Assembly: GCF_023055435.1 (NCBI RefSeq)
Contig: NW_025963979.1
Coordinates: 6,820,001-6,884,000, forward strand
DNA from: Haliotis rufescens
Lineage: Eukaryota
Direction of reading: 5' to 3'
DNA length: 64,000 nt
The position numbers and the translations under genes are program-made. Below are positions 32,433-61,825 of this stretch, one piece after another; the stretch's first letter is position 1, and each line of letters begins with the position of its first letter. The notes under the pieces are model-generated. The model ran no database searches, was not told the origin of the DNA, and saw only the letters and a list, made by a program, of their open reading frames with translations.

Positions 32433-35400
32433 GTAACCACATAATCCTCACGCAGCGGCTCATGTAACACTAAACACGCAGTCGCCCCAAGCAGTGTCTC
32501 AGGGGACACTAAACACGCAGTCGCTCCATGCAGTGTCTCAGGTAACACTAAACATGCAGTCGCCCCATGCAGTGTCTTAGGTGACACTAAACACGCAGTC
32601 GCCCCATGCAGTGTCTCATGTAACACCAAACACGCAGTCGCCCCATGCAGTGTCTCAAGTGACACTAAACACGCAGTCGCCCCACGCAGTGTCTTAGGTA
32701 ACACTAAACATGCAGTCGCACCATGCAGTGTCTCAGGTAACACTTAACATGCAGTCGCCCCATGCAGTGTCTTAGGTGACACTTAACACGCAGTCGCCCC
32801 ATACAGTCTCAGGTAACACTAAACATGCAGTCGCCCCATGCAGTGTCTCAGGTAACACTAAACACGCAGTCGCACCATGCAGTGTCTCAAGTGACACTAA
32901 ACACGCATTCGCACCACGAAGTGTCTTAGGTAACACTAAACATGCAGTCGCCCCATGCAGTGTCTCAGGTGACACTAAACATGCAGTCGCCCCATGCAGT
33001 GTCTTAGGTAACACTAAACATGCAGTCGCCCCATGCAGTGTCTCAGGTGACACTAAACATGCAGTCGCCCCATGCAGTGTCTTAGGTGACACTAAACCTG
33101 CAATCGCCCCACGCAGTGTCTTAGGTAACACTAAACATGCAGTCGCGCAACGCAGTGTCTTAGGTAACACTAAACATGCAGTCGCCCCATGCAGTGTCTC
33201 ATGTAACACTTAACATGCAGTCGCCCCATGCAGTGTCTGAGGTAACACTAAACATGCAGTCGCCCAACGCAGTGTCTTAGGTAACACTAAACATGCAGTC
33301 GCCCCATGCAGTGTCTCAGGTGACACTAAACATGCAGTCGCCCCATGCAGTGTCTTAGGTGACACTAAACATGCAGTCGCCCCATGCAGTGTCTTAGGTA
33401 ACACTTAACATGCAGTCGCCCCATGCAGTGTCTTAGGTAACACTAAACATGCAGTCGCCCCATGCAGTGTCTCAGGTGACACTTAACATGCAGTCGCCCC
33501 ATGCAGTGTCTTAGGTAACACTTTACATGCAGTCGCCCCATGCAGTGTCTTAGGTAACACTAAACATGCAGTCGCCCCATGCAGTGTCTTAGGAAACACT
33601 AAACATGCAGTCGCCCCATGCAGTGTCTCAGGTGACACTAAACATGCAGTCGCCCTGTACAGTGTCTCAGGTAACACTTAACATGCAGTCGCCCCATGCA
33701 GTGTCTCAGGTGACACTAAACATGTTGTCGCCCTATGCAGTGTCTCAGGTAACACTTAACATGCAGTCGCCCCAAACAGTGTCTCAGGTAACACTAAACA
33801 TGCAGTCGCCCTATGCAGTGTCTTAGGTAACACTAAACATGCAGTCGCTCCACGTAGTGTCTTAGGTGACACTAAACCTGCAGTCGCCCTATGCAGTGTC
33901 TCAAGTGACACTAAACATGCAGTCGCCCCACGCAGTGTCTTAGGTAACACTAAACATGCAGTCGCCCTACACAGTGTCTTAGGTAACACTAAACATGCAG
34001 TCGCCCCATGCAGTGTCTCAGGTGACACTAAACATGCAGTCGCCCCATGCAGTGTCTTAGGTGACACTAAACATGCAGTCGCCCCATGCAGTGTCTCAGG
34101 TAACACTAAACATGCAGTCGCCCCATGCAGTGTCTCAAGTGACACTAAACACGCAGTCGCCCCACGCAGTGTCTTAGGTAACACTAAACATGCAGTCGCA
34201 CCATGCAGTGTCTCAGGTAACACTAAACATGCAGTCGCCCCATGCAGTGTCTTAGGTGACACTTAACACGCAGTCGCCCCAAACAGTGTCTCAGGTAACA
34301 CTAAACATGCAGTCGCCCTATGCAGTGTCTCAGGTAACACTAAACATGCAGTCGCCCCATGCAGTGTCTCAGGTGACACTAAACACGCAGTCGCCCCATG
34401 CAGTGTGTCAAGTGACACTAAACACGCAGTCGCCCCACGAAGTGTCTTAGGTAACACTAAACATGCAGTCGCCCCATGCAGTGTCTCAAGTGACACTAAA
34501 CATGCAGTCGCCCCACGCAGTGTCTTAGGTAACACTAAACATGCAGTCGCCCAACGCAGTGTCTTAGGTAACACTAAACACGCAGTCGCCCCATGCAGTG
34601 TCTCAGGTAACACTAAACATGCAGTCGCCCCATGCAGTGTCTTAGGTGACACTAAACACGCAGTCGCCCCATGCAGTGTCTCATGTAACACCAAACACGC
34701 AGTCGCCCCATGCAGTGTCTCAAGTGACACTAAACACGCAGTCGCCCCACGCAGTGTCTTAGGTAACACTAAACATGCAGTCGCACCATGCAGTGTCTCA
34801 GGTAACACTAAACATGCAGTCGCCCCATGCAGTGTCTTAGGTGACACTTAACACGCAGTCGCCCCAAACAGTGTCTCAGGTAACACTAAACATGCAGTCG
34901 CCCTATGCAGTGTCTCAGGTAACACTAAACATGCAGTCGCCCCATGCAGTGTCTCAGGTGACACTAAACACGCAGTCGCCCCATGCAGTGTGTCAAGTGA
35001 CACTAAACACGCAGTCGCCCCACGAAGTGTCTTAGGTAACACTAAACATGCAGTCGCCCCATGCAGTGTCTCAAGTGACACTAAACATGCAGTCGCCCCA
35101 CGCAGTGTCTTAGGTAACACTAAACATGCAGTCGCCCAACGCAGTGTCTTAGGTAACACTAAACACGCAGTCGCCCCATGCAGTGTCTCAGGTAACACTA
35201 AACATGCAGTCGCCCCATGCAGTGTCTTAGGTGACACTAAACACGCAGTCGCCCCATGCAGTGTCTCATGTAACACCAAACACGCAGTCGCCCCATGCAG
35301 TGTCTCAAGTGACACTAAACGCGCAGTCGCCCCACGCAGTGTCTTAGGTAACACTAAACATGCAGTCGCACCATGCAGTGTCTCAGGTAACACTAAACAT

Positions 35401-38400
35401 GCAGTCGCCCCATGCAGTGTCTTAGGTGACACTTAACACGCAGTCGCCCCATACAGTGTCTCAGGTAACACTAAACATGCAGTCGCCCTATGCAGTGTCT
35501 CAGGTAACACTAAACATGCAGTCGCCCCATGCAGTGTGTCAAGTGACACTAAACATGCAGTCGCCCCATGCAGTGTGTCAAGTGACACTAAACATGCAGT
35601 CGCCCCACGCAGTGTCTTAGGTAACACTAAACATGCAGTCGCCCAACGCAGTGTCTTAGGTAACAATAAACATGCAGTCGCCCCATGCAGTGTCTCAGGT
35701 AACACTAAACACGCAGTCGCCCCATGCAGTGTCTCAGGTAACACTAAACATGCAGTCGCCCCACGCAGTGTCTTAGGTAACACTAAACATGCAGTCGCCC
35801 AACGCAGTGTCTTAGGTAACACTAAACATGCAGTCGCCCAATGCAGTGTCTCATGTAACACTTAACATGCAGTCGCCCCAAGCAGTGTCTTAGGTGACAC
35901 TAAACATGCAGTCGCCCCATGCAGTGTCTCAGGTAACACTAAACACGCAGTCGCCCCATGCAGTGTCTCATGTAACACCAAACACGCAGTCGCCCCATGC
36001 AGTGTCTCAGGTGACACTAAACACGCAGTCGCCCCACGCAGTGTCTTAGGTAACACTTAACATGCAGTCGCACCATGCAGTGTCTCAGGTAACACTAAAC
36101 ATGCAGTTGCCCCATGCAGTGTCTTAGGTGACACTAAACCTGCAGTCGCCCCACGCAGTGTCTTAGGTGACACTAAACATGCAGTCGCCCAACGCAGTGT
36201 CTTAGGTAACACTAAACATGCAGTCGCCCCATGCAGTGTCTCATGTAACACTTAACATGCAGTCGCCCCACGCAGTGTCTTAAGTGACACTAAACATGCA
36301 GTCGCCCAACGCAGTGTCTTAGGTAACACTAAACATGCAGTCGCCCCATGCAGTGTCTTAGGTGACACTAAACATGCAGTCGCCCCATGCAGTGTCTTAA
36401 GTAACACTTAACATGCAGTCGCCCCATGCAGTGTCTTAGGTAACACTTAACATGCAGCCGCCCCATGCAGTGTCTTAAGTAACACTTAACATGTAGTCGC
36501 CCCATGCAGTGTCTTAGGTAACACTAAACATGCAGTCGCCCCATGCAGTAACCACATAATCCTCACGCAGCGGCTCATGTAACACTAAACACGCAGTCGC
36601 CCCATGCAGTGTCTCAGGTAACACTAAACATGCAGTCGCCCCACGCAGTGTCTTAGGTAACACTAAACATGCAGTCGCCCAACGCAGTGTCTTGGGTAAC
36701 ACCAAACACGCAGTCGCCCCATGCAGTGTCTCAAGTGACACTAAACACGCAGTCGCCCCACGCAGTGTCTTAGGTAACACTAAACATGCAGTCGCACCAT
36801 GCAGTGTCTCAGGTAACACTAAACATGCAGTCGCCCCATGCAGTGTCTTAGGTGACACTTAACACGCAGTCGCCCCATACAGTGTCTCAGGTAACACTAA
36901 ACATGCAGTCGCCCTATGCAGTGTCTCAGGTAACACTAAACATGCAGTCGCCCCATGCAGTGTCTCAGGTGACACTAAACATGCAGTCGCCCCATGCAGT
37001 GTGTCAAGTGACACTAAACATGCAGTCGCCCCACGCAGTGTCTTAGGTAACACTAAACATGCAGTCGCCCTATGCAGTGTCTCATGTAACACTAAACATG
37101 AAGTCGCCCCATGCAGCGGCTCATGTAACACTAAACACGCAGTCGCCACATGCAGTGTCTCAGGTAACACTAAACATGCAGTCGCCCCACGCAGTGTCTT
37201 AGGTAACACTAAACATGCAGTCGCCCAACGCAGTGTCTTAGGTAACACTAAACATGCAGTCGCCCCATGCAGTGTCTCATGTAACACTTAACATGCAGTC
37301 GCCCCAAGCAGTGTCTTAGGTGACACTAAACATGCAGTCGCCCCATGCAGTGTCTCAGGTAACACTAAACACGCAGTCGCACCATGCAGTGTCTCATGTA
37401 ACACCAAACACGCAGTCGCCCCATACAGTCTCAGGTAACACTAAACATGCAGTCGCCCCATGCAGTGTCTCAGGTAACACTAAACACGCAGTCGCCCCAT
37501 GCAGTGTCTCAGGTAACACTAAACATGCAGTCGCCCCATGCAGTGTCTTAGGTGACACTTAACACGCAGTCGCCCCATACAGTGTCTCAGGTAACACTAA
37601 ACATGCAGTCGCCCCATGCAGTGTCTGAGGTAACACTTAACATGCAGTCGCCCCATTCAGTGTCTCATGTAACACTAAACATGAAGTCGCCCCATGCATT
37701 GTCTCAGGTAACACTAAACATGCAGTCGCCCCATGCAGTGTCTCAGGTTACACTAAAGATGCAGTCGCCCAACGCAGTGTCTTAGGTAACATTCAACATG
37801 CAGTCGCCCCATGCAGCGGCTCATGTAACACTAAATATGCAGTCGCCCCATGCAGTGTCTCAGGTAACACTAAACATGCAGTCGCCCCATGCAGTGTCTC
37901 AGGTGACACTAAACACGCAGTCGCCCTATGCAGTGTCTCAGGTAACACTAAACATGCAGTCGCCCCATGCAGTGTCTCAGGTAACACTAAACATGCAGTC
38001 GCCCCACGAAGTGTCTTAGGTAACACTAAACATGCAGTCGCCCTACGCAGTGTCTTAGGTAACACTAAACATGCAGTCGCCCCATGCAGCGGCTCATGTA
38101 ACACTAAACACGCAGTCGCCCCATGCAGTGTCTTAGGTGACACTAAACCTGCAGACGCCCTATGCAGTGTCTCAAATGACACTAAACATGCAGTCGCCCC
38201 ACGAAGTGTCTTAGGTAACACTAAACATGCAGTCGCCCCATGCAGTGTCTCATGTAACACTAAACATGCAGTCGCCCCATGCAGCGGCTCATGTAACACT
38301 AAACACGCAGTCGCCCCATGCAGTGTCTCAGGTAACACTAAACATGCAGTCGCCCCATTCAGTGTCTTAGGTGACACTAAACATGCAGCCGCCCCACGCA

Positions 38401-39550
38401 GTGTCTTATGTGACATTAATCATGCAGTCGCCCCATGCAGTGTGTCATGTAACACCAAACATGCAGTCGCCCCATGCAGTGTCTCAAGTGACACTTAACA
38501 TGCAGTCGCCCCATGCAGTGTCTCAGGTGACACTAAACATGCAGTCGCTCCATGTAGTGTCTTAGGTAACACTAAACCTGCAGTCGCCCCATGCAGTGTC
38601 TCAAGTGACACTAAACATGCAGTCGCCCAACGCAGTGTCTTAGGTGACACTAAACATGCAGTCGCCCAACGCAGTGTCTTAGGTAACACTAAACATGCAG
38701 TCGCCCCACGCAGTGTCTCAGGTAACACTAAACATGCAGTCGCTCCACGTAGTGTCTTAGGTGACACTAAACCTGCAGTCGCCCTATGCAGTGTCTCAAG
38801 TGACACTAAACATGCAGTCGCCCCACGCAGTGTCTTAGGTAACACTAAACATGCAGTCGCCCAACGCAGTGTCTTAGGTAACACTAAACATGCAGTCGCC
38901 CCATGCAGCGGCTCATGTAACACTAAACACGCAGTCGCCCCATGCAGTGTCTTAGGTGACACTAAACCTGCAGTCGCCCTATGCAGTGTCTCAAGTGACA
39001 CTAAACATGCAGTCGCCCCACGCAGTGTCTTAGGTAACACTTAACATGCAGTCGCCCCATGCAGTGTCTCATGTAACACTAAACATGCAGTCGCCCCATG
39101 CAGTGTCTGAGGTAACACTTAACATGCAGTCGCCCCATTCAGTGTCTCATGTAACACTAAACACGCAGTCGCCCCATGCAGTGTCTCAAGTAACACTAAA
39201 CATGCAGTCGCCCCACGCAGTGTCTTAGGTGACACTAAACATGCAGCCGCCCCACGCAGTGTCTTATGTGACATTAATCATGCAGTCGCCCCATGCAGTG
39301 TGTCATGTAACACTAAACATGCAGTCGCCCCATGCAGTGTCTCAAGTGACACTAAACATGCAGTCGCCCCATGCAGTGTCTCAGGTGACACTAAACATGC
39401 AGTCGCCCCATGCAGTGTCTTAGGTGACACTAAACACGCAGTCGTCCCATACAGTGTCACAGGTGACCCGAAACACGCAGTCGCCCCACGCAGTGTCTCA
39501 GGTGCACTAAACATGCAGTCGCCCCATGCAGTGTTTTAGGTAACACTAAG
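32433..39550. repeat. 39-bp satellite array, ~7.1 kb (~180 monomers), with local 585-bp higher-order repeats
   Basis: Monomer AAACATGCAGTCGCCCCATGCAGTGTCTYAGGTRACACT. Blocks 34263-34847 and 34848-35432 are near identical (15 monomers each). Confidence 0.98.
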
Positions 39551-53191: not shown

Positions 53192-53415
53192 GAGGACACC
53201 ATGTACTGCAAAAATGTACAATTAATGTATTAAGAATGTATACATACAAATCATAAATACAAAACAACTTCTTAATTTAAACATTATCAATCATGCAATA
53301 TTAATGAACAATTTTATTCGTACTTAAATATATTGTTTAACGACGTACAATAATTAACATCAATCAGGACTTTACATAACTTACGGTATCTGATAATAAA
53401 TTATGAGTCATAATG

Positions 53416-54890
53416 AGTAGTATAGAGTCAGTAGGCAGGAACCTTTTTTGGTTGATCCGGTTGATCCAGGCGGATGCGAAGGTGATTGGCTGATCCAAGT
53501 CACGTGATCGGATAGGATGACTCATGCATCAACAGCGCGTCACAGGTGAGGGGGAATGAAAGGTGTGTGTTTATAAGACAGAAAAGAATTCATAATAAAA
53601 CAAAAGTAAAAGGTTATGAATAGAGCTATGTGTATAGCGTGCTGCCTTGAATAGACAGACCGTACCCGTCAGCCCAGTTTGAATTGAGCGCGCTTGACAA
53701 CTGACGTGGCCTCGTCGTTTAACCCACGCTCGCTAGAGCGTGCGATCTGGTTTGATGAATGAAGGGTGTGTGTTGAAAGTACAAGTACCACAATAGAGAC
53801 GGGTTATGTCAACACGATATACGCCGTGTAATGTAGGGAAAAAAAATTGTACGTCTAGCTGGATCAAATCCATCTTATACGGTCTACACGTTGTACACCA
53901 TGAACGTTCGACAACCTGTATGGAAAAAAAAAAATATAGACAAAATAGATAAGACTACGCAATCAGCAAGCTAGCAGTTTACGTTTAGCGCGCAAGAACG
54001 AGCTAATGTATAGCAGAGAGACTAAGCGACCGGCCGCCCATAACAATGTCAACATACACTACCTTACAATTAATGTTAATATAACAGCCTCGCCTGAAGC
54101 TTCCCATTCATAAATTGTGTGACCAGTGTCCCGTATTTATGATATGTTAGGGAAGATGTGTTGTACATTTGTTATTGTAAAAGGGAGTTATTTCAGAGAG
54201 GATATATATATGGGTATTCCCCTCATTAAACCTTTCTTTCGTTGGTGTCTATTAAACGTATCCGGTATTTAATACATTTGAATGATGTAGGAAAGTATGT
54301 GCGTGTAGATGTTGTACCTATATCCGAACACGAATGTATGACACCTTTCAATAGATCAATTACGGTTATAACCACGACACGCAACATGACTATGAGCGTG
54401 GTTAGCAGTTCATATTTTTTAAACACATCGTAAATGACAGATTTCTGATGAATGAACTCGCCCGCACACATGTCTATAGGGTTATGTTCGCCCGAACTGT
54501 AAACAGTGACACATTGATAACAGGAAGGGTGTGTGGAATGCACTCGTCCTTGTAAGGGTAAAATACGCGTTTAAACGCACCATTTAAATGATGACGACAT
54601 TACTTTTTAGATGTATTGGTATCAGTGAGTGAGTGAATTTAGTTTTACGCCACACTCGGCATTATTCAAGCTCTAGGACGGTGGTCTGTCAATAAACGAG
54701 CTTGGACCAGACAATCCAGTGATCAACAGCATGAGCAGCGATCTGTGCAACTAGGAACCGATGGCACGTGTCATCCGAGTCGGACCAACCGATCCCCGTC
54801 AGTCGCCGATAAGCATGGGTTACTGAAGGTCGATTTTTATAACCCGGGACCTTCACGGGTGTAGTATGACGAAGACTATATACTAATATG
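53416..54890 (+). repeat. Left terminal inverted repeat (~1475 bp)
   Basis: Reverse complement of 57583-59064. The match ends at GAAGACTATATACTAATATG / CATATGAGTATATAGTCTTC. Confidence 0.97.
54625..54860 (-). mobile_element. Diverged family A SINE inside the left TIR (mirror copy 57613-57848, + strand)
   Basis: Family A body with an (ACTC)n tail, at the same position in both TIRs. Confidence 0.9.
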
Positions 54891-55039
54891 ATCGCTTTTT
54901 TAACATACTCACAAGTGTGCTGTGAAGAAAAGAGTGTCTTCCAAGAATCCCTGCACGTGTAAGACAGTATAAACTCTACAGTAGTGTACCCCGACAAACA
55001 GTTTTACTCTCGCCAGCAAACGGATTGGACGTGAACAAC

Positions 55040-55336
55040 ATGAAGAAAGCATCAGAGATTAGACTTGACCCTAGAGATATATTTAGGAAGACTACGTTGA
55101 GAAAATCACAACAGAGAAAGAAACCACAAGCAGCCAAGAAGTCGACGCTGAAGACAAAGAAGAGACAGGTAACACCTAAAATGAAAACGATGACAACCCA
55201 ACAGGGATCGAAGACAACACCCCAACCCGTGAAAATACAACATGTGTCGGAGGTGAAGGCTGTGGTGGAACGGGCAATTGCTGCCTTGAAGCGTCAACAG
55301 AGTCAAGGGTATAAAAGAAAGCTTCATACCCTCTAA
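55040..55336 (+). CDS. Small Lys/Thr-rich basic protein (~98 aa) of the Polinton-like element, function unknown
   Basis: ATG at 55040 in AACAACATGA context, TATAAA at 54968, highly basic sequence, same strand as the neighbouring element genes. Confidence 0.55.
   Translation: MKKASEIRLDPRDIFRKTTLRKSQQRKKPQAAKKSTLKTKKRQVTPKMKTMTTQQGSKTTPQPVKIQHVSEVKAVVERAIAALKRQQSQGYKRKLHTL
55310..55316 (+). promoter_or_regulatory. TATA box for the ZnF-ATPase gene
   Basis: TATAAAA starts 49 nt upstream of a strong Kozak start (CACCATGG, ATG at 55359) and lies inside the end of the previous ORF. Confidence 0.55.
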
Positions 55337-55358
55337 TCGCACACCGTATTGGATCACC

Positions 55359-57109
55359 ATGGGGGTTGCCACCTGTCCGGACTGTGAAAAAATGTTTTCA
55401 AGGAGAGATGTCATGTTACGACACAGGAGAAATAAACATAGCATACCGCCGCCGCCGTTACAAGCCCATCCGCTACCGCCGCCGCCGCCGCAAATCCACC
55501 CGCCATTACAAGCCCACCCGCTAACGCCGCCGCCGCCGCAAGTCCACCCACCGCCGCCGCTGCGTCAAGCCAACCCGCCGTTCAGCCCATCCGCCGCCGC
55601 CGCCGCCGCCGCCGCCGCCATCGCAAGTCCACTCGTGGCTGCCTCATTTACCATGCATATCTGATCTTCGAGAACAATTCAAGTTCCTGATTCCCTCAAA
55701 TGCGCTCGTTGTGGGACCCAGTGGTTGTGGAAAGTCTGTGTTTACCTCTCATGTTCTCCGGCATGGCCTGATCCAACCCCAACCTACCCGCATCGTTTGG
55801 TGTTATACTCAATGGCAGCCATTATATAAGGACCTCGGTGAGCAGCTGCCTCAGCTGACCTTTGTCAAAGGAATTCCCTACGATATCTTGGACGAGGATT
55901 ACTTTGATGCTCGTCAACAGAACGTGTTGGTCCTGGATGATTTCCTGGCCGAAGCAAAGCACGACAAGCGTATTTCGCGGTTGTTTACTCAAACCTCACA
56001 TCACAAGAATGTATTGATCTTTCTCTTGATACAAAATCTGTTTCCGAGAGGTAAGGAATCGAGAGACATTGCTTTGAATGCGCATTATGTGACCCTGTTT
56101 CATTCCCCCATAGATAAACAGCAAATCAAACTCTTCGCTCGTAGAATTTTCCCCGAACATATGGATCACTTTATGGCTATGTATGAAAAGGTTACTGAAA
56201 CACCCTATGGACAACTCACCATCGATCTAAAACCTACCACCAAAGATAAGGATCGACTGCATGTTAACCTCATAAATGAGGAAAACAGGAGAACAACAGC
56301 ACAGTCTGAACCTGATCTGCGTAGGGAGAAGTTGACTACAACAGAATCTCTGGATCGTCCTCTGACACAAGAAGAGAGATTGCCCCAACATCAGCTCACG
56401 CCAATTGAAACCGATTCAGACACGAGTAGTGAGACATCATTGACTATGGCCACGGCTTGCGCAGATTGCGGGGTGCTGATAGATAACATGCACGATCTAC
56501 AGCGACATATCAAACACTGGTGTCCGGCCAATAGCCTTCAACCTAAGAGAAAGCGTGCCAGGCTCGAGAGTGATGACGATGACAGTGACTTTGACGACCT
56601 AGCCTCTTCCCAGAAAGGCAGTGGTCTTGCCGTCAAACCTCCACGTGGGAAGTCAACATTCACTAATATGGAAGCCGAGGAGTGGCAAAATGTAGGCTTA
56701 CAACGCATCTGGAAGCAGGTGTACGATACGTTTCATGTCAAGATGAAACTGCAGAAAAAAACAGTACGAGCGACAGGGACGAACGCAAGAATGGATTGAG
56801 AGACGATTGAAACTGAGGTGGGAGGATCTAGTGCGTAGTACTCTCAACTATGCGATGGAATATACCACGTACTTTAAAGAGGCACCTCTGTTTCAAAACA
56901 TGCTATACAACCTGGGAGACATGAATCCCTCCACGGAACAATCCGTTCTCAAAAATAAAATCAAACTCCTCCTAAAACCCAAGATGAAAGAGATCCTGCC
57001 TTTGATGGATATGCCGGAAATAGAAAGTGAGACTGAATCTGATAGCGTTGCAGAGGATAACGACGGTGATGACGAGGAGGAGGATGATGACCGTGAGCAG
57101 AACGATTAG
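55359..57109 (+). pseudogene. C2H2 zinc finger / Pro-rich / Polinton A32-like (FtsK-HerA) packaging ATPase / zinc finger / helical domain fusion, broken by two frameshifts
   Basis: CPDCEKMFSRRDVMLRHRRNKH; Walker A ALVVGPSGCGKS; IVWCYTQWQPLY; Walker B VLVLDD; SHHKNV..LIQNLF..GKESRDIALNAHY; CADCG..HDLQRHIKHWC. ORFs 55359-55664, 55711-56799 and 56807-57109 join into ~580 aa after restoring 2 bp near 55583 and removing one A from the A7 run at 56755-56761. Confidence 0.85.
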
Positions 57110-57155
57110 GCATAAATACCCATCACTACTATATCAGTCTAACAGTCTGAAGAGA

Positions 57156-57461
57156 ATGCCGAGTCAACGCCACGCGTCTAGTTTGATTCATATTTTGAAA
57201 ACACCTCGTAAACTGAGGCGTTTGAACGATAAGAAACGCCGAATTTCACTGTACGTGAGAGGAATGGTGAAACTGGGGCCTCCTGGACGGAAATCGTTAC
57301 AAGCAATGGATAAAGCATAGACTATAGACAACCATTCAACCTTAAAACAGCGTAGAAAAGGAAACATTCAACAGTGCGAAATGTGTTTCAAAACGTGGAC
57401 TCGCTGTTTAAACAATAGGGCCTTCGAGCAGCAGCAGCAGCATGTGTATATGAGTGACTAA
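57156..57461 (+). pseudogene. Small basic ORF of the element; probable premature TAG at 57318-57320, with the frame continuing through a CxxC motif
   Basis: ATG at 57156 follows CATAAATA (57111) and ATCAGT. The frame stays open after the TAG (TIDNHSTLKQRRKGNIQQCEMCFKTW...) to TAA at 57461. AATAAA lies near 57533, followed by a GT/T-rich tract. Confidence 0.4.
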
Positions 57462-57582
57462 ATAATGTTCCAGAGTGAATACTATTGTCCATTCGTATAT
57501 CACGGCTTTGTATGGAACCGATTGGCTCGAATCAATAAATGATACGAATGAATTGTTTGGGTTTTTTTTCTCAGTTTGTTTG

Positions 57583-59064
57583 CATATGAGTATATAGTCT
57601 TCGTCATACTACACCCGTGAAGGTCCCGGGGTATAAAAATCGACCTTCAGTAACCCATGCTTATCGGCGACTGACGGGGATCGGTTGGTCCGACTCGGAT
57701 GACACGTGCCATCGGTTCCTAGTTGCACAGATCGCTGCTGATGCTGTTGATCACTGGATTGTCTGGTCCAAGCTCGTTTATTGACAGACCACCGTCCTAG
57801 AGCTGGAATAAAGCCGAGTGGGGCGTAAAACTAAATTCACTCACTCACTGATACCAATTATACATCTAAAAAGTAATGTCATCATCATTTAAATGGTGAG
57901 TTTAAACGCGTATTTTACCCTTACAAGGACGAGTGCATTCCACACACCCTTCCTGTTATCAAATGTGTCACTGTTTACAGTTCGGGCGAACATAACCCCA
58001 TAGACATGTGTGCGGGCGAGTTCATTCATCAGAAATATGTCATTTACGATGTGTTTATAAATATAAACTGCTAAACCACGCTCATAGTCATGTTGCGTGT
58101 CGTGGTTAGAACCGTAATTGATCTATTGAAAGGTGTCATACATTCGTGTTCGGATATAGGTACAACATCTTCACGCATTTACTTTTCCTACATCATTCAA
58201 ATGTATTAAATACCGGATACGTTTAATAGACACCAACGAAAGAAAAGTTTAATGAGGGGGGGAATACCCATATATATCCTCTCTGAAATAACTCCCTTTT
58301 AAAATATCAAATGTACAACACATCTTCCCTAACGTATCATAAATACGGGACACTGCTCACACCATTTATGAATGGGAAGCTTCAGGCGAGGCTGTTATAT
58401 TAACATTAATTGTAAGGTAGTGTATGTTGACATTGTTATGGGCGGCCGGTCGCTTAGTCTCTCTGCTAAACATTAGCTCGTTCTTGCGCGCTAAACGTAA
58501 ACTGCTAGCTTGCTGATTGCGTAGTCTTATCTATTTTGTCTATATATATTTTTTTTTTCCATACAGGTTGTCGAACGTTCATGGTGTACAACGTGTAGAC
58601 CGTATAAGATGGATTTGATCCAGCTAGACGTACATTTTTTTCCCTACATTACACGGCGTATATCGTGTTGACATAACCCGTCTCTATTGTGGTACTTGTA
58701 CTTTCAACACACACCCTTCATTCATCAAACCAGATCGCACGCTCTAGCGAGCGCGGGTTAAACGACGAGGCCACGTCAGTTGTCAAGCGCGCTCAATTCA
58801 AACTGGGCTGACGGGTACGGTCTGTCTATTCAAGGCAGCACGCTATACACATAGCTCTATTCATAACCTTTTACTTTTGTTTTATTATGAATTCTTTTCT
58901 GTCTTATAAACACACACCTTTCATTCCCCCTCACCTGTGACGCGCTGTTGATGCATGAGTCATCCTATCCGATCACGTGACTTGGATCAGCCAATCACCT
59001 TCGCATCCGCCTGGATCAACCGGATCAACCAAAAAAGGTTCCTGCCTACTGACTCTATACTACT
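57583..59064 (-). repeat. Right terminal inverted repeat (~1482 bp)
   Basis: Reverse complement of 53416-54890, with about 30 differences by eye, mostly in the inner half. Confidence 0.97.
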
Positions 59065-60444
59065 ATAATGTTTTTCTAAGGAGTCATCACAACAAAACGA
59101 GACTCATGACGTCTTCATTGAAAAGTAAAAAGTAATTTTCAATCATTACACAAACAGTCCTCTACTGTTTAATATGAGCTGTTTGCGTACTAATGTAAGG
59201 TCAATGTATTGAAATATCTTTGCATTTAATTAATAATACGGTCGTTTTGGTGTTTTGAAGCGTTTTCAAGAAGCACAAGACACGATTTTCAGATCCGTAA
59301 TACAAAAACTGCACCATCAGTAATCAGCATGTGTTTGAAACATGCGTCAAAACCTGGGACCCTGCTCCTCTAAAATCGTGCAATGAATGCTATAAGTTAC
59401 CAGTGTTAGCAAGTACAAGGATTTTTAAATGATTATGATGGCCAATGCAAGAAATTATGTTGTGTTTTCAGAAGATAATGATATTACTGCCAAACAAGCT
59501 TAAGAAACACAGCACCTTGGCACAGCAGGCGTTCCACTGCAAGGGATGAATCTATTTCCACTGAACAGGGGACAGCGGTGGATTGTGTAATGCACGTGCT
59601 CAACTGTATTTGTCAATGCGCCACTTCGAAACGACTCAGTCGTTGACATCGCTGACCCACGAGCAAACCTTCCACCCCTGCTGTTGTTATGGACTGTACA
59701 GATTATGCTGATTAGCGGATTCTGAGCCTGGATTTATGTTTGTTTAGCAGTATCTCATGAAGAAATATGGCTCATTTACATTGCTTGGTTTCATGTTGAA
59801 TAAGCCTCCATGTTGACATGTACTGGTGCCTATATATTGCATTGGCTACCAGAAAAATAACATAAGGTGGCCGGTGGCTCCATTTGAAAAAGATTTTTTT
59901 CCGAAGACCTACTGAAACCATCTTGTCATAGTATTATAATCATAATATAATTATGGTTCTCCCTTTCATTAGACTCCTAGTCTGGTATGTATTAAGGTCA
60001 GCTAAGGGTCATTCTCAATCACCCAGGGTACCGCACACACAAGGTAGTGGAACTGGATATTTCAGACGGACACATTGGTTCATTAAGGATCTGCTGTTAC
60101 AGCCTTATTGTCATCCTTAATGAAATACGGGGTACATATATCATTCAATATAACATATTGACAAAGTTGTTTGCATGAACAATATGATTCGTCCTTCACT
60201 TTGCCTTTCTTGTTGATCATCTGCTGTTCCGATGTGTTTTAAGCTTCTAAATGCCAATTGAAGAAATAGATCATGTTTTTGTAAAAGTCATGATGGGTAC
60301 CCAGTTTGTGCTTTGTTCGTCCAACACATAACCAACTTGATCCTCCACACTGCCACAGAGTGCGAGGCACATTCTTGGTGGGTGTGAATTCCCACTTAAT
60401 ACACTCACTCAGCCTCTCTCTCTCTAGTCTCATCAGTTTCCCCA

Positions 60445-60519: not shown

Positions 60520-61825
60520 ACCTAGATTTAATGTAACATACTGTAACAAGGTATATAATTAATGTAACATATTGTCACTAAGAATAGAATTAATGTAACA
60601 TACTGTAACCATGAACAAAATTAATGTAACATATTGTAACAAAGAATATATGTAAAACACTGTAACCATAAATAGAATTAATGTAACATACCAGTACTAT
60701 AACCATGAATAGAATTAATGTAACATACCAGTACTATAACCATGAATAGAATTAATGTAACATACCAGTACTATAACCATGAATAAAATTAATGTAACAT
60801 ACGAGTACTGTAACCATGAATAGAATTAATGTAACATACTGTAACCATGAACAAAATTAATGTAACATATTGTAACAAAGAATATATGTAAAACACTGTA
60901 ACCATAAAGAGAATTAATGTAACATACTGTTACCATGAATAGAATAAATGTAACATACCAGTACTATAACCATGAATAAAATTAATGTAACATACGAGTA
61001 CTGTAACCATGAATAGAATTAATGTAACATACTGTAACCATGAATAGAATTAATGTAACATACCAGTACTATAACCATGAATAAAATTAATGTAACATAC
61101 GAGTACTGTAACCATGAATAGAATTAATGTAACATACTGTAACCATGAATAAAATTAATGTAACATACTGTATCAAAGAATATAATTAATGTAACATACC
61201 AGTACTGTAACCATGAATAAAATTAATGTAACATACCAGTACTGTAACCATAAACAGAATTAATGTAACATACTGTTACCATGAATAGAATTAATGTAAC
61301 ATACCAGTACTGTAACCATGAATGGAATTAATGTAACATACGAGTACTGTAACCATGAATAGAATTAATGTAACATAATGTAACCATGAATAGAATTAAT
61401 GTAACATACTGTATCAAAGAATATAATTAATGTAACATACCAGTACTGTAACCATGAAAAGAATTAATGTAACATACTGTAACCATGAAAAGAATTAATG
61501 TAATATACTGTAGCAAAGAATAGAATTAATGTAACACACTGTAACCATGAATTAATTAACATACTGTAACCATGAATGGAATCAATGTAACATACTGCAA
61601 CAATGAATATATGTAACATATTGAATGTAACACTGTTACCATGAATAGAATTAATGTAACATACTGTAACAATGAATATATGTAACATACTGTAACCATG
61701 AATAGATTTAATGTAACATACTGTAACAATGAATATATGTAACATACTGTAACCATGAGCAGATTTAATGTAACATACTGTAACAATGAACAGAATTAAT
61801 GTAACATACTGTAACAAAGAATATC
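60520..61825. repeat. AT-rich intronic minisatellite, ~31-36 bp unit (GAATTAATGTAACATAC[CAGTA]CTGTAACCATGAATA)
   Basis: Roughly 40 degenerate tandem copies visible. Confidence 0.95.

Follow-up and report, generated by a model that had tools for sequence, protein, structure and literature searches.

A multi-copy mini-Polinton of Haliotis rufescens with an ATPase gene of its own, a probable helper-dependent satellite

We analysed a 64,000-nucleotide window of the Haliotis rufescens genome (NCBI RefSeq assembly GCF_023055435.1, contig NW_025963979.1, positions 6,820,001 to 6,884,000 of the forward strand), which contains a short Polinton/Maverick-type element, here called the mini. Positions given below are those of the window unless a locus is named. 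The mini spans 53416-59064 (5,649 bp) and represents a decaying member of family A, a non-autonomous Polinton family with many copies. It is neither an autonomous Polinton nor a simple deletion derivative, and it behaves like a helper-dependent satellite. Dependence of the family on a helper is very likely. The best explanation as a whole, which we regard as reasonably probable, is a non-autonomous family that is likely copied and integrated by a full-length helper Polinton and encodes its own ATPase, predicted to load the mini genome into helper capsids.

The element starts with AGTAGT, finishes with ACTACT and is flanked by a perfect 6-bp target site duplication (TSD), ATAATG, read at 53410-53415 and 59065-59070. 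Its left (53416-54890, + strand, 1,475 bp) and right (57583-59064, - strand, 1,482 bp) terminal inverted repeats are 97.2% identical and constitute 52% of the element. These repeats, the (AGT)2 motif and the 6-bp TSD are the end features of autonomous Polintons. The core of 2,692 bp carries three genes, all on the + strand: ORF1 (55040-55336), encoding a basic protein of 98 aa, a long ATPase gene (55359-57109) and ORF3 (57156-57320), encoding a basic protein of 54 aa. The end structure, the inverted repeats making up over half of the element and the 2.7-kb core with three same-strand genes, all claimed in the first-pass annotation of this DNA, were reproduced on re-measurement. No frame of polymerase length and no match to the core DNA of the helper described below were found in the window core, which leaves the mini without genes for polymerase B and an rve integrase. 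Major and minor capsid genes and a protease gene are absent as well, the core being filled by ORF1, the ATPase gene and ORF3 with helper core DNA unmatched.

Family A is young and comprises about 75 coding copies. Of 169 candidates found with ATPase DNA, 40 had scored matches at 98-100% identity, and ORF3 gave 78 matches (102 candidates); at the protein level, about 80 of the 150 ATPase matches listed are at least 90% identical, some of them representing parts of a single copy. Genome-wide, the end pattern was matched 233 times and its reversed control 5 times. We read 58 family A loci, 38 first and then 20. Paired ends with a perfect 6-bp TSD are present in 30 of the first 38, with 28 distinct TSDs, two locus pairs that share a TSD being treated as segmental duplicates; these 30 elements are 4.7-8.4 kb long (median 5.75 kb). 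A perfect TSD was found in 8 of the next 20, for which reading windows of 8-10 kb often truncated an end, giving 38 of 58 loci with paired ends and a perfect TSD. The median core divergence among copies is 1.9%, and the outer left and right repeats are at least 99.5% identical in 10 of the 24 measurable copies. Family core DNA is present in 20 of the 24 sequencing runs listed, which bear six organism labels and come from seven studies. Other copies of about 5.6 kb with the same core and different TSDs thus exist at dozens of sites.

When end matches were paired, a 14.9-kb element with mini-type ends emerged, here called helper 1. Its capsid-type gene occurs at 17 places at 91% identity or above. 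Eleven of these were read: seven are elements that measure 14.9-17.2 kb, have a TSD and carry mini-type ends (all core frames are unbroken in three of the seven), one matches at one end, and three are without mini-type ends within 20 kb. The full-length Polinton with the same terminal sequence for which the first-pass annotation had suggested a search is therefore present in the genome. It encodes a polymerase (PF03175, over the cut-off), an integrase (rve) and a protease (ASFV S273R match, E 2e-9). Support for the 435-aa capsid gene comes from its position and from clusters that it hits with an atlas score of 0.98, 15-30% of whose members carry a double jelly-roll (DJR) family; Pfam and PDB sequence searches were blank. 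The label 'F54H12.2-like' is presumably tied to Polinton capsids; a literature search for the link was blank.

Helpers and minis have an identical set of end variants. In the window copy, the match to helpers is confined to bases 1-590 (53416-54005, + strand) and their mirror, at 83-93% identity; this outer part of the repeat is likely to be the origin and integrase end. Three other minis (L016, L017, L021) match one helper at 98.7-99.1% over 1,052 bp of repeat, and others at about 84-98% over shorter or split stretches. This pattern suggests repeated exchange of ends between minis and helpers. Helper core DNA was found in none of the 58 mini loci. Many separate insertions with their own TSDs, and ends in common with an autonomous partner in the same genome, are the features of a non-autonomous family. 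The Polinton end motif is linked to protein-primed replication in the account of PMC8097293. The helper polymerase and integrase would likely act in trans on the common ends, and the cassette would acquire new ends through recombination with whichever helper replicates beside it; we hold this pair of steps to be highly probable.

Several observations concern related ends and modules. Two helper-1-type capsid genes without mini-type ends within 20 kb (L101+L102, L105+L106) lie beside fragments of a different polymerase type, a layout that suggests module swapping. Copies of another Polinton family, virus 3 (L151+L133+L134+L152:34273-34634; L157:4342-4703), contain about 330 bp at 90-97% identity to the mini A/helper 1 repeat, near one end.

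The ATPase of the mini belongs to another lineage than that of the helper and groups with capsid-less elements. The helper ATPase has 221 aa and is 29% identical to the mini ATPase domain. Ten further capsid-type loci carry ATPases of 221-239 aa (nine loci) or a split gene (one); the long type is found in none. It is found in capsid-less elements with integrase, long ATPase and polymerase genes: a 9.1-kb family with unusual TGATGA...TCATCA ends (37 end matches, 6-bp TSDs) and an 8.7-kb element with AGTAGT ends and a 6-bp TSD. The mini ATPase domain shares 62% identity with that of the former and 36% with that of the latter, and neither type has a match to capsid or protease genes. The capsid-less elements of 8.7-9.1 kb are located at L111+L062+L112:10215-19339, L113+L066+L067 and L194+L119+L069+L120:20327-29034. 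In an ATPase tree of 39 rows (two short rows omitted), the minis lie on one side of a branch supported at 96/100 and join the 9.1-kb family at 100/100; the tree is unrooted, its long branches meet, and it carries no direction of descent. Approximately unbiased (AU) tests on 31 rows reject the grouping of mini A with helper 1 (p 4e-5) and of a second mini family, B, with helper 2 (p 2e-56). The first-pass annotation held that the mini kept its ATPase while dropping replication and capsid genes. An ATPase that is 29% identical to that of the helper and separated from it in the AU test contradicts this view, and, with helper core matches at 0 of 58 loci, the mini does not have the make-up of an internal-deletion derivative.

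The window copy of the ATPase gene has two breaks, one near 55.57 kb in the proline-rich repeat and one near 56.76 kb. Sibling copies have it as a single frame of 574-606 aa, and one unbroken frame of more than 560 aa is present in 20 of 57 copies. The protein consists of a C2H2 finger, the proline-rich repeat, the ATPase domain, a second zinc finger, a helical domain and an acidic tail, in this order. The A32/FtsK-type ATPase domain lies at 55663-56280 (+ strand), with the Walker A motif GPSGCGKS at 55714-55737. The predicted fold (mean pLDDT 66.6) best matches STIV B204 (E 2.6e-4), adenovirus IVa2 (E 1.7e-7) and A32-like ATPases, and the Walker A, Walker B and downstream motifs are preserved across mini families A, B and C. 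With both Walker motifs and the modelled fold of a DJR-virus motor, the protein is predicted to be an A32/FtsK-type packaging ATPase. Pfam Pox_A32 (PF04665) leaves the query itself unmatched and is present in 8 of 24 homologs. The nearest annotated proteins are abalone proteins, and homologs of the long type occur in Mytilus, Pinctada and Mya; a scan of viral contigs with the ATPase gave 11 pattern matches, of which none was confirmed. The C-terminal helical domain, which is modelled confidently, has no meaningful fold match (VIA Z at most 6.7; Foldseek E at least 0.097; atlas at most 0.85).

To assess selection on the cassette, variants were counted against the commonest codon of each column in 57 copies, two duplicates being omitted. 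ATPase-domain variants present in at least four copies comprise 11 synonymous and 4 non-synonymous changes (pN/pS 0.10, p 4e-5), and singletons comprise 39 synonymous and 100 non-synonymous changes including 6 stops (pN/pS 0.73); the two classes differ (Fisher p 0.0008), the p values being approximate because shared variants are non-independent events. Shared variants follow the same trend in the ATPase C-terminal domain (12 synonymous to 10 non-synonymous) and weakly in ORF3 (6 to 9). The spectrum has the pattern of selection during amplification and then decay after insertion. In its ATPase, the mini carries what a satellite would be expected to have, a selected gene distinct from that of the helper. 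The non-neutral shared variants and the many insertions with different TSDs bear out the mobile non-autonomous family proposed in the first-pass annotation. They speak against the alternative given there, in which a full Polinton inserted at this locus and later lost its middle, leaving a unique short form with the ATPase as a neutral remnant. Two breaks in the window copy of the gene and singletons close to neutrality would suit such a history. It is refuted by the same short structure at dozens of sites with their own TSDs, the lack of helper core DNA in 58 loci and the purifying selection on an ATPase that lies in another clade, and we give it almost no weight.

The same cassette also stands on different ends. 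Nine loci of family B were read; they are about 9-11 kb long and have AGTAGATA ends, with clear TSDs at two of them. The family carries an ORF1 that is 41% identical to that of family A, a long ATPase that is 49% identical overall and an ORF3 homolog. The family B ends have no match in helper 1. They align with another full-length Polinton, being 94% identical over 1,333 bp to a 21.4-kb element and 90-91% identical to a 19.0-kb copy. Family C, 5.7 kb long and with a TSD, contains the same three genes, partly broken, and additionally a NADAR gene (L070:7896-8309, - strand), whose counterpart in a third full-length Polinton family is 60% identical. The ends of mini C are like those of the virus-3 family over about 20 bases only, and an unrelated control scored equally, which does not establish that family as the helper of mini C. 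Between families, synonymous sites of the ATPase are near or at saturation (pN 0.11-0.23). From this saturation and the different Polinton ends it follows that the cassette is old and that it has become linked to terminal sequences from at least two unrelated helpers.

The gene content suggests how the mini might exploit the helper. The zinc-fingered ATPase and the two small basic proteins would bind mini DNA and load helper particles, and the two zinc fingers, which are missing from the helper ATPase, could favour mini DNA. We lean slightly towards a role of the ATPase in packaging mini DNA into helper capsids. Packaging of the mini by its own ATPase would explain the upkeep of a gene that is redundant with the helper ATPase. 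In addition, nine Polintons without capsid genes that are described in PMC4028283 are also without protease and ATPase, so a motor without a capsid suggests action on the capsid of another element. Redirection of helper packaging by the mini remains an analogy.

Homologs of ORF1 occur in mini families B and C. ORF1 also shows weak similarity to the gene that lies, in the helper, between those for the minor and major capsid proteins (hhalign E 0.0012; PW position, the names PW, PM and PZ being positional as used in PMC8097293). None of 60 shuffles scored equally high, and the next-best matches among the loci compared are the same genes. A search of ORF1 against a protein database returned 136 candidates, none at E of 1 or below. 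For ORF3, which is kept in families B and C, homology to the helper PM-position protein was rejected (E 0.69). Its profile had no match among 1.84 billion representatives, in which short genes may be uncalled, so that this result does not prove absence.

A number of points weigh against packaging by a satellite motor. The helper possesses its own ATPase, and its major capsid identity rests on one language-model search. The likeness of ORF1 to the PW-position gene is weak (probability 19%), and that of ORF3 to the tail of the helper PZ-position protein is fainter still (E 0.043). Within family A, shared ORF1 variants give no sign of purifying selection (4 synonymous, 21 other), and here ORF1 differs from what a selected satellite gene would display. 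A derivative lacking the ATPase domain is present at two sites with different TSDs (L082, L085; 98.5-99.8% identical), and the ATPase is therefore unneeded in cis for insertion. About 25 of the roughly 80 family A ATPase matches are unread and may include a longer parent. Finally, capsid-less autonomous elements retain the same long ATPase, an observation compatible with a function other than packaging and equally with a second satellite tier.

The last point leads to an explanation in which the family is helper-dependent and the ATPase acts inside the cell during copying, excision or integration, as a DNA pump or loading adaptor, with no packaging involved. The long type is seen here only in elements without a capsid gene, where it adjoins the integrase gene in the 9.1-kb and 8.7-kb elements, and nine of the ten other capsid-type loci have ATPases of 221-239 aa, the tenth a split gene. 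Such a role sits less well with the continued insertion of ATPase-less derivatives, with packaging motors as the top matches of the predicted fold and with the usual tie of the ATPase to a capsid, as in the nine capsid-less, ATPase-less Polintons of PMC4028283. We consider it unlikely.

Coding minis outnumber helper copies by about 4:1 (78 ORF3 matches against 17 capsid-gene places at 91% identity or above). This ratio would fit a reading of the cassette as an interference module, whose divergent ATPase and small decoys poison helper packaging and free the replication machinery, like a defective-interfering genome. ORF1 and ORF3 do look like shortened helper proteins, and palindromic copies of a snap-back-like kind exist. 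However, the decoy homologies are weak, and a pure poison would not need the Walker A, Walker B and downstream motifs that families A, B and C have kept, which makes this explanation quite unlikely.

Alternatively, the mini could be an optional segment within a multipartite community of Polintons that have ends in common and are packaged side by side. Segmented relatives are known, such as Vesanto virus as presented in PMC8363768, and the same genome has polymerase-only and polymerase-less structural elements with related ends. The helper, however, is complete, with an ATPase of its own, and the cassette passes between helpers that are unrelated, so the mini supplies nothing that the helper visibly lacks; we judge a multipartite arrangement very unlikely. 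The polymerase-only elements (11.4-11.9 kb; G000 L197-L200, L209-L210) have no detected integrase, ATPase or capsid gene. The structural element (10.5 kb; L145+L146:6551-17064) carries an integrase, capsid-type genes, a protease and an ATPase and is without a polymerase; one copy was read, with two mismatches in its TSD. The end sequences of the two types are 70-87% alike, and together they are a candidate two-segment Polinton.

Comparison with known systems places the mini between several of them. Autonomous Polintons/Mavericks (polintoviruses, adintoviruses) have the same (AGT)2//(ACT)2 ends, 6-bp TSD, long inverted repeats, intronless genes and FtsK/A32-type ATPase in the description of PMC8097293. 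They differ in size, at 12.7-24.6 kb against 5.6 kb, and in having the polymerase, integrase, capsid and protease genes that the mini is without; the mini ATPase in turn has about 600 aa and two zinc fingers, compared with 221 aa in the helper Polinton. Mimivirus transpovirons, as covered in PMC11161782, are likewise small, linear, capsid-less DNAs that belong among Polinton-related elements and rely on a larger virus. Transpovirons have retained a replication protein and given up the structural module; the mini has given up replication, retains an ATPase of packaging type and inserts into host DNA. The segments of Drosophila Vesanto virus are also DNA units of 3.3-5.8 kb with similar terminal inverted repeats, some of them possibly optional or satellite; according to PMC8363768, however, this is a bidna-like ssDNA virus from pooled fly sequencing, whereas the minis are integrated with TSDs and their partner is a complete single-piece Polinton.

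Two further comparisons draw on general background. Phage satellites such as P4 and the PICIs encode their own integrase and replication genes, and their redirection of helper packaging has been shown. The mini resembles them in its small genome, its lack of a capsid gene, its own packaging-type gene and its helper dependence; as far as gene content tells, it differs by borrowing both integrase and replication functions through the common ends. Short non-autonomous Polinton families of zebrafish were reportedly described by Kapitonov and Jurka in 2006 as derivatives of an autonomous partner. These families are said to be multi-copy, with TSDs and ends in common with the partner, as is the mini. 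Unlike them, the mini has a selected cassette of its own, core DNA unrelated to that of the partner, and the ends of several partners.

No description of ATPase-carrying Polinton satellites was found in our literature searches, among them term searches of PMC3014272, PMC8502044, PMC11296320, PMC6431247 and 10.1101/2022.07.12.499685. Supplements and Repbase entries could list such elements, and Table S1 of PMC4028283 may list elements with an ATPase and without a capsid. Surveys that need capsid genes and at least 10 kb (as set out in PMC11131425), or integrase plus polymerase (as in PMC8097293), miss such elements. The present analysis adds the helper, the foreign origin of the ATPase, the selection on it and the occurrence of the same cassette on different helper ends. 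We see an even chance that animal polintoviruses have their own satellite class, an old, self-standing three-gene cassette that captures the terminal repeats of unrelated helpers and hijacks capsids with a zinc-fingered motor. If so, phage-style satellite biology would extend to endogenous DNA viruses of animals, and these parasites would have a second tier able to replicate itself, the capsid-less integrase-ATPase-polymerase elements. Polinton virions were unobserved as of a 2023 preprint (10.1101/2023.08.22.554363). Selection acting on a packaging motor where no capsid is encoded would indirectly point to the formation of such virions in molluscs. The question can be put to the test with a parasite that has the motor but no capsid, since its 5.6-kb DNA is an abundant and distinctive marker and its helper family is identified in the same genome.

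Small-RNA reads contain a 30-nt, U-start, piRNA-like species that matches the left repeat at 53483-53512 (- strand), with 105 and 922 reads in two runs. It also matches the right repeat and, within 2 mismatches, five of the seven helper copies. A minor U-start species of 11 reads is antisense to the ATPase gene (56420, - strand). Together these RNAs look like piRNA targeting of the element. As to expression, no RNA run is among those listed as containing the core. Contigs from two runs guessed to be RNA cover the core; they may be DNA and were not counted as expression.

Putative TATA-like boxes on the + strand precede ORF1 (54968-54973, 72 bases upstream of the start), the ATPase gene (55310-55316, 49 bases) and ORF3 (57111-57117, 45 bases), and a putative AATAAA poly(A)-type signal (57534-57539, + strand) lies ahead of the right repeat. 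The spacing of the ATPase box is identical in mini C and the 9.1-kb element. The cassette called tidy in the first-pass annotation is not so in the window copy, whose ATPase gene is split over three frames.

Beside the coding copies, derivatives of 0.5-4 kb have mini-type ends, most of them with TSDs and without the ATPase domain (L078-L085). Head-to-head palindromic copies, which resemble snap-back replication products, were seen among minis, capsid-less elements and one capsid-type element (L019, L025, L048, L059, L060, L064, L188, L109+L110). Within the inner, mini-specific part of the repeat, about 100 bp (54642-54743; mirror 57730-57831) are a piece of an abundant host repeat with many copies in the window, which has very high depth in two sequencing runs. 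The window also contains two tandem arrays, one of 7 kb with a 39-bp unit (32459-39549) and an AT-rich one of 1.3 kb with 31-37-bp units (60523-61823).

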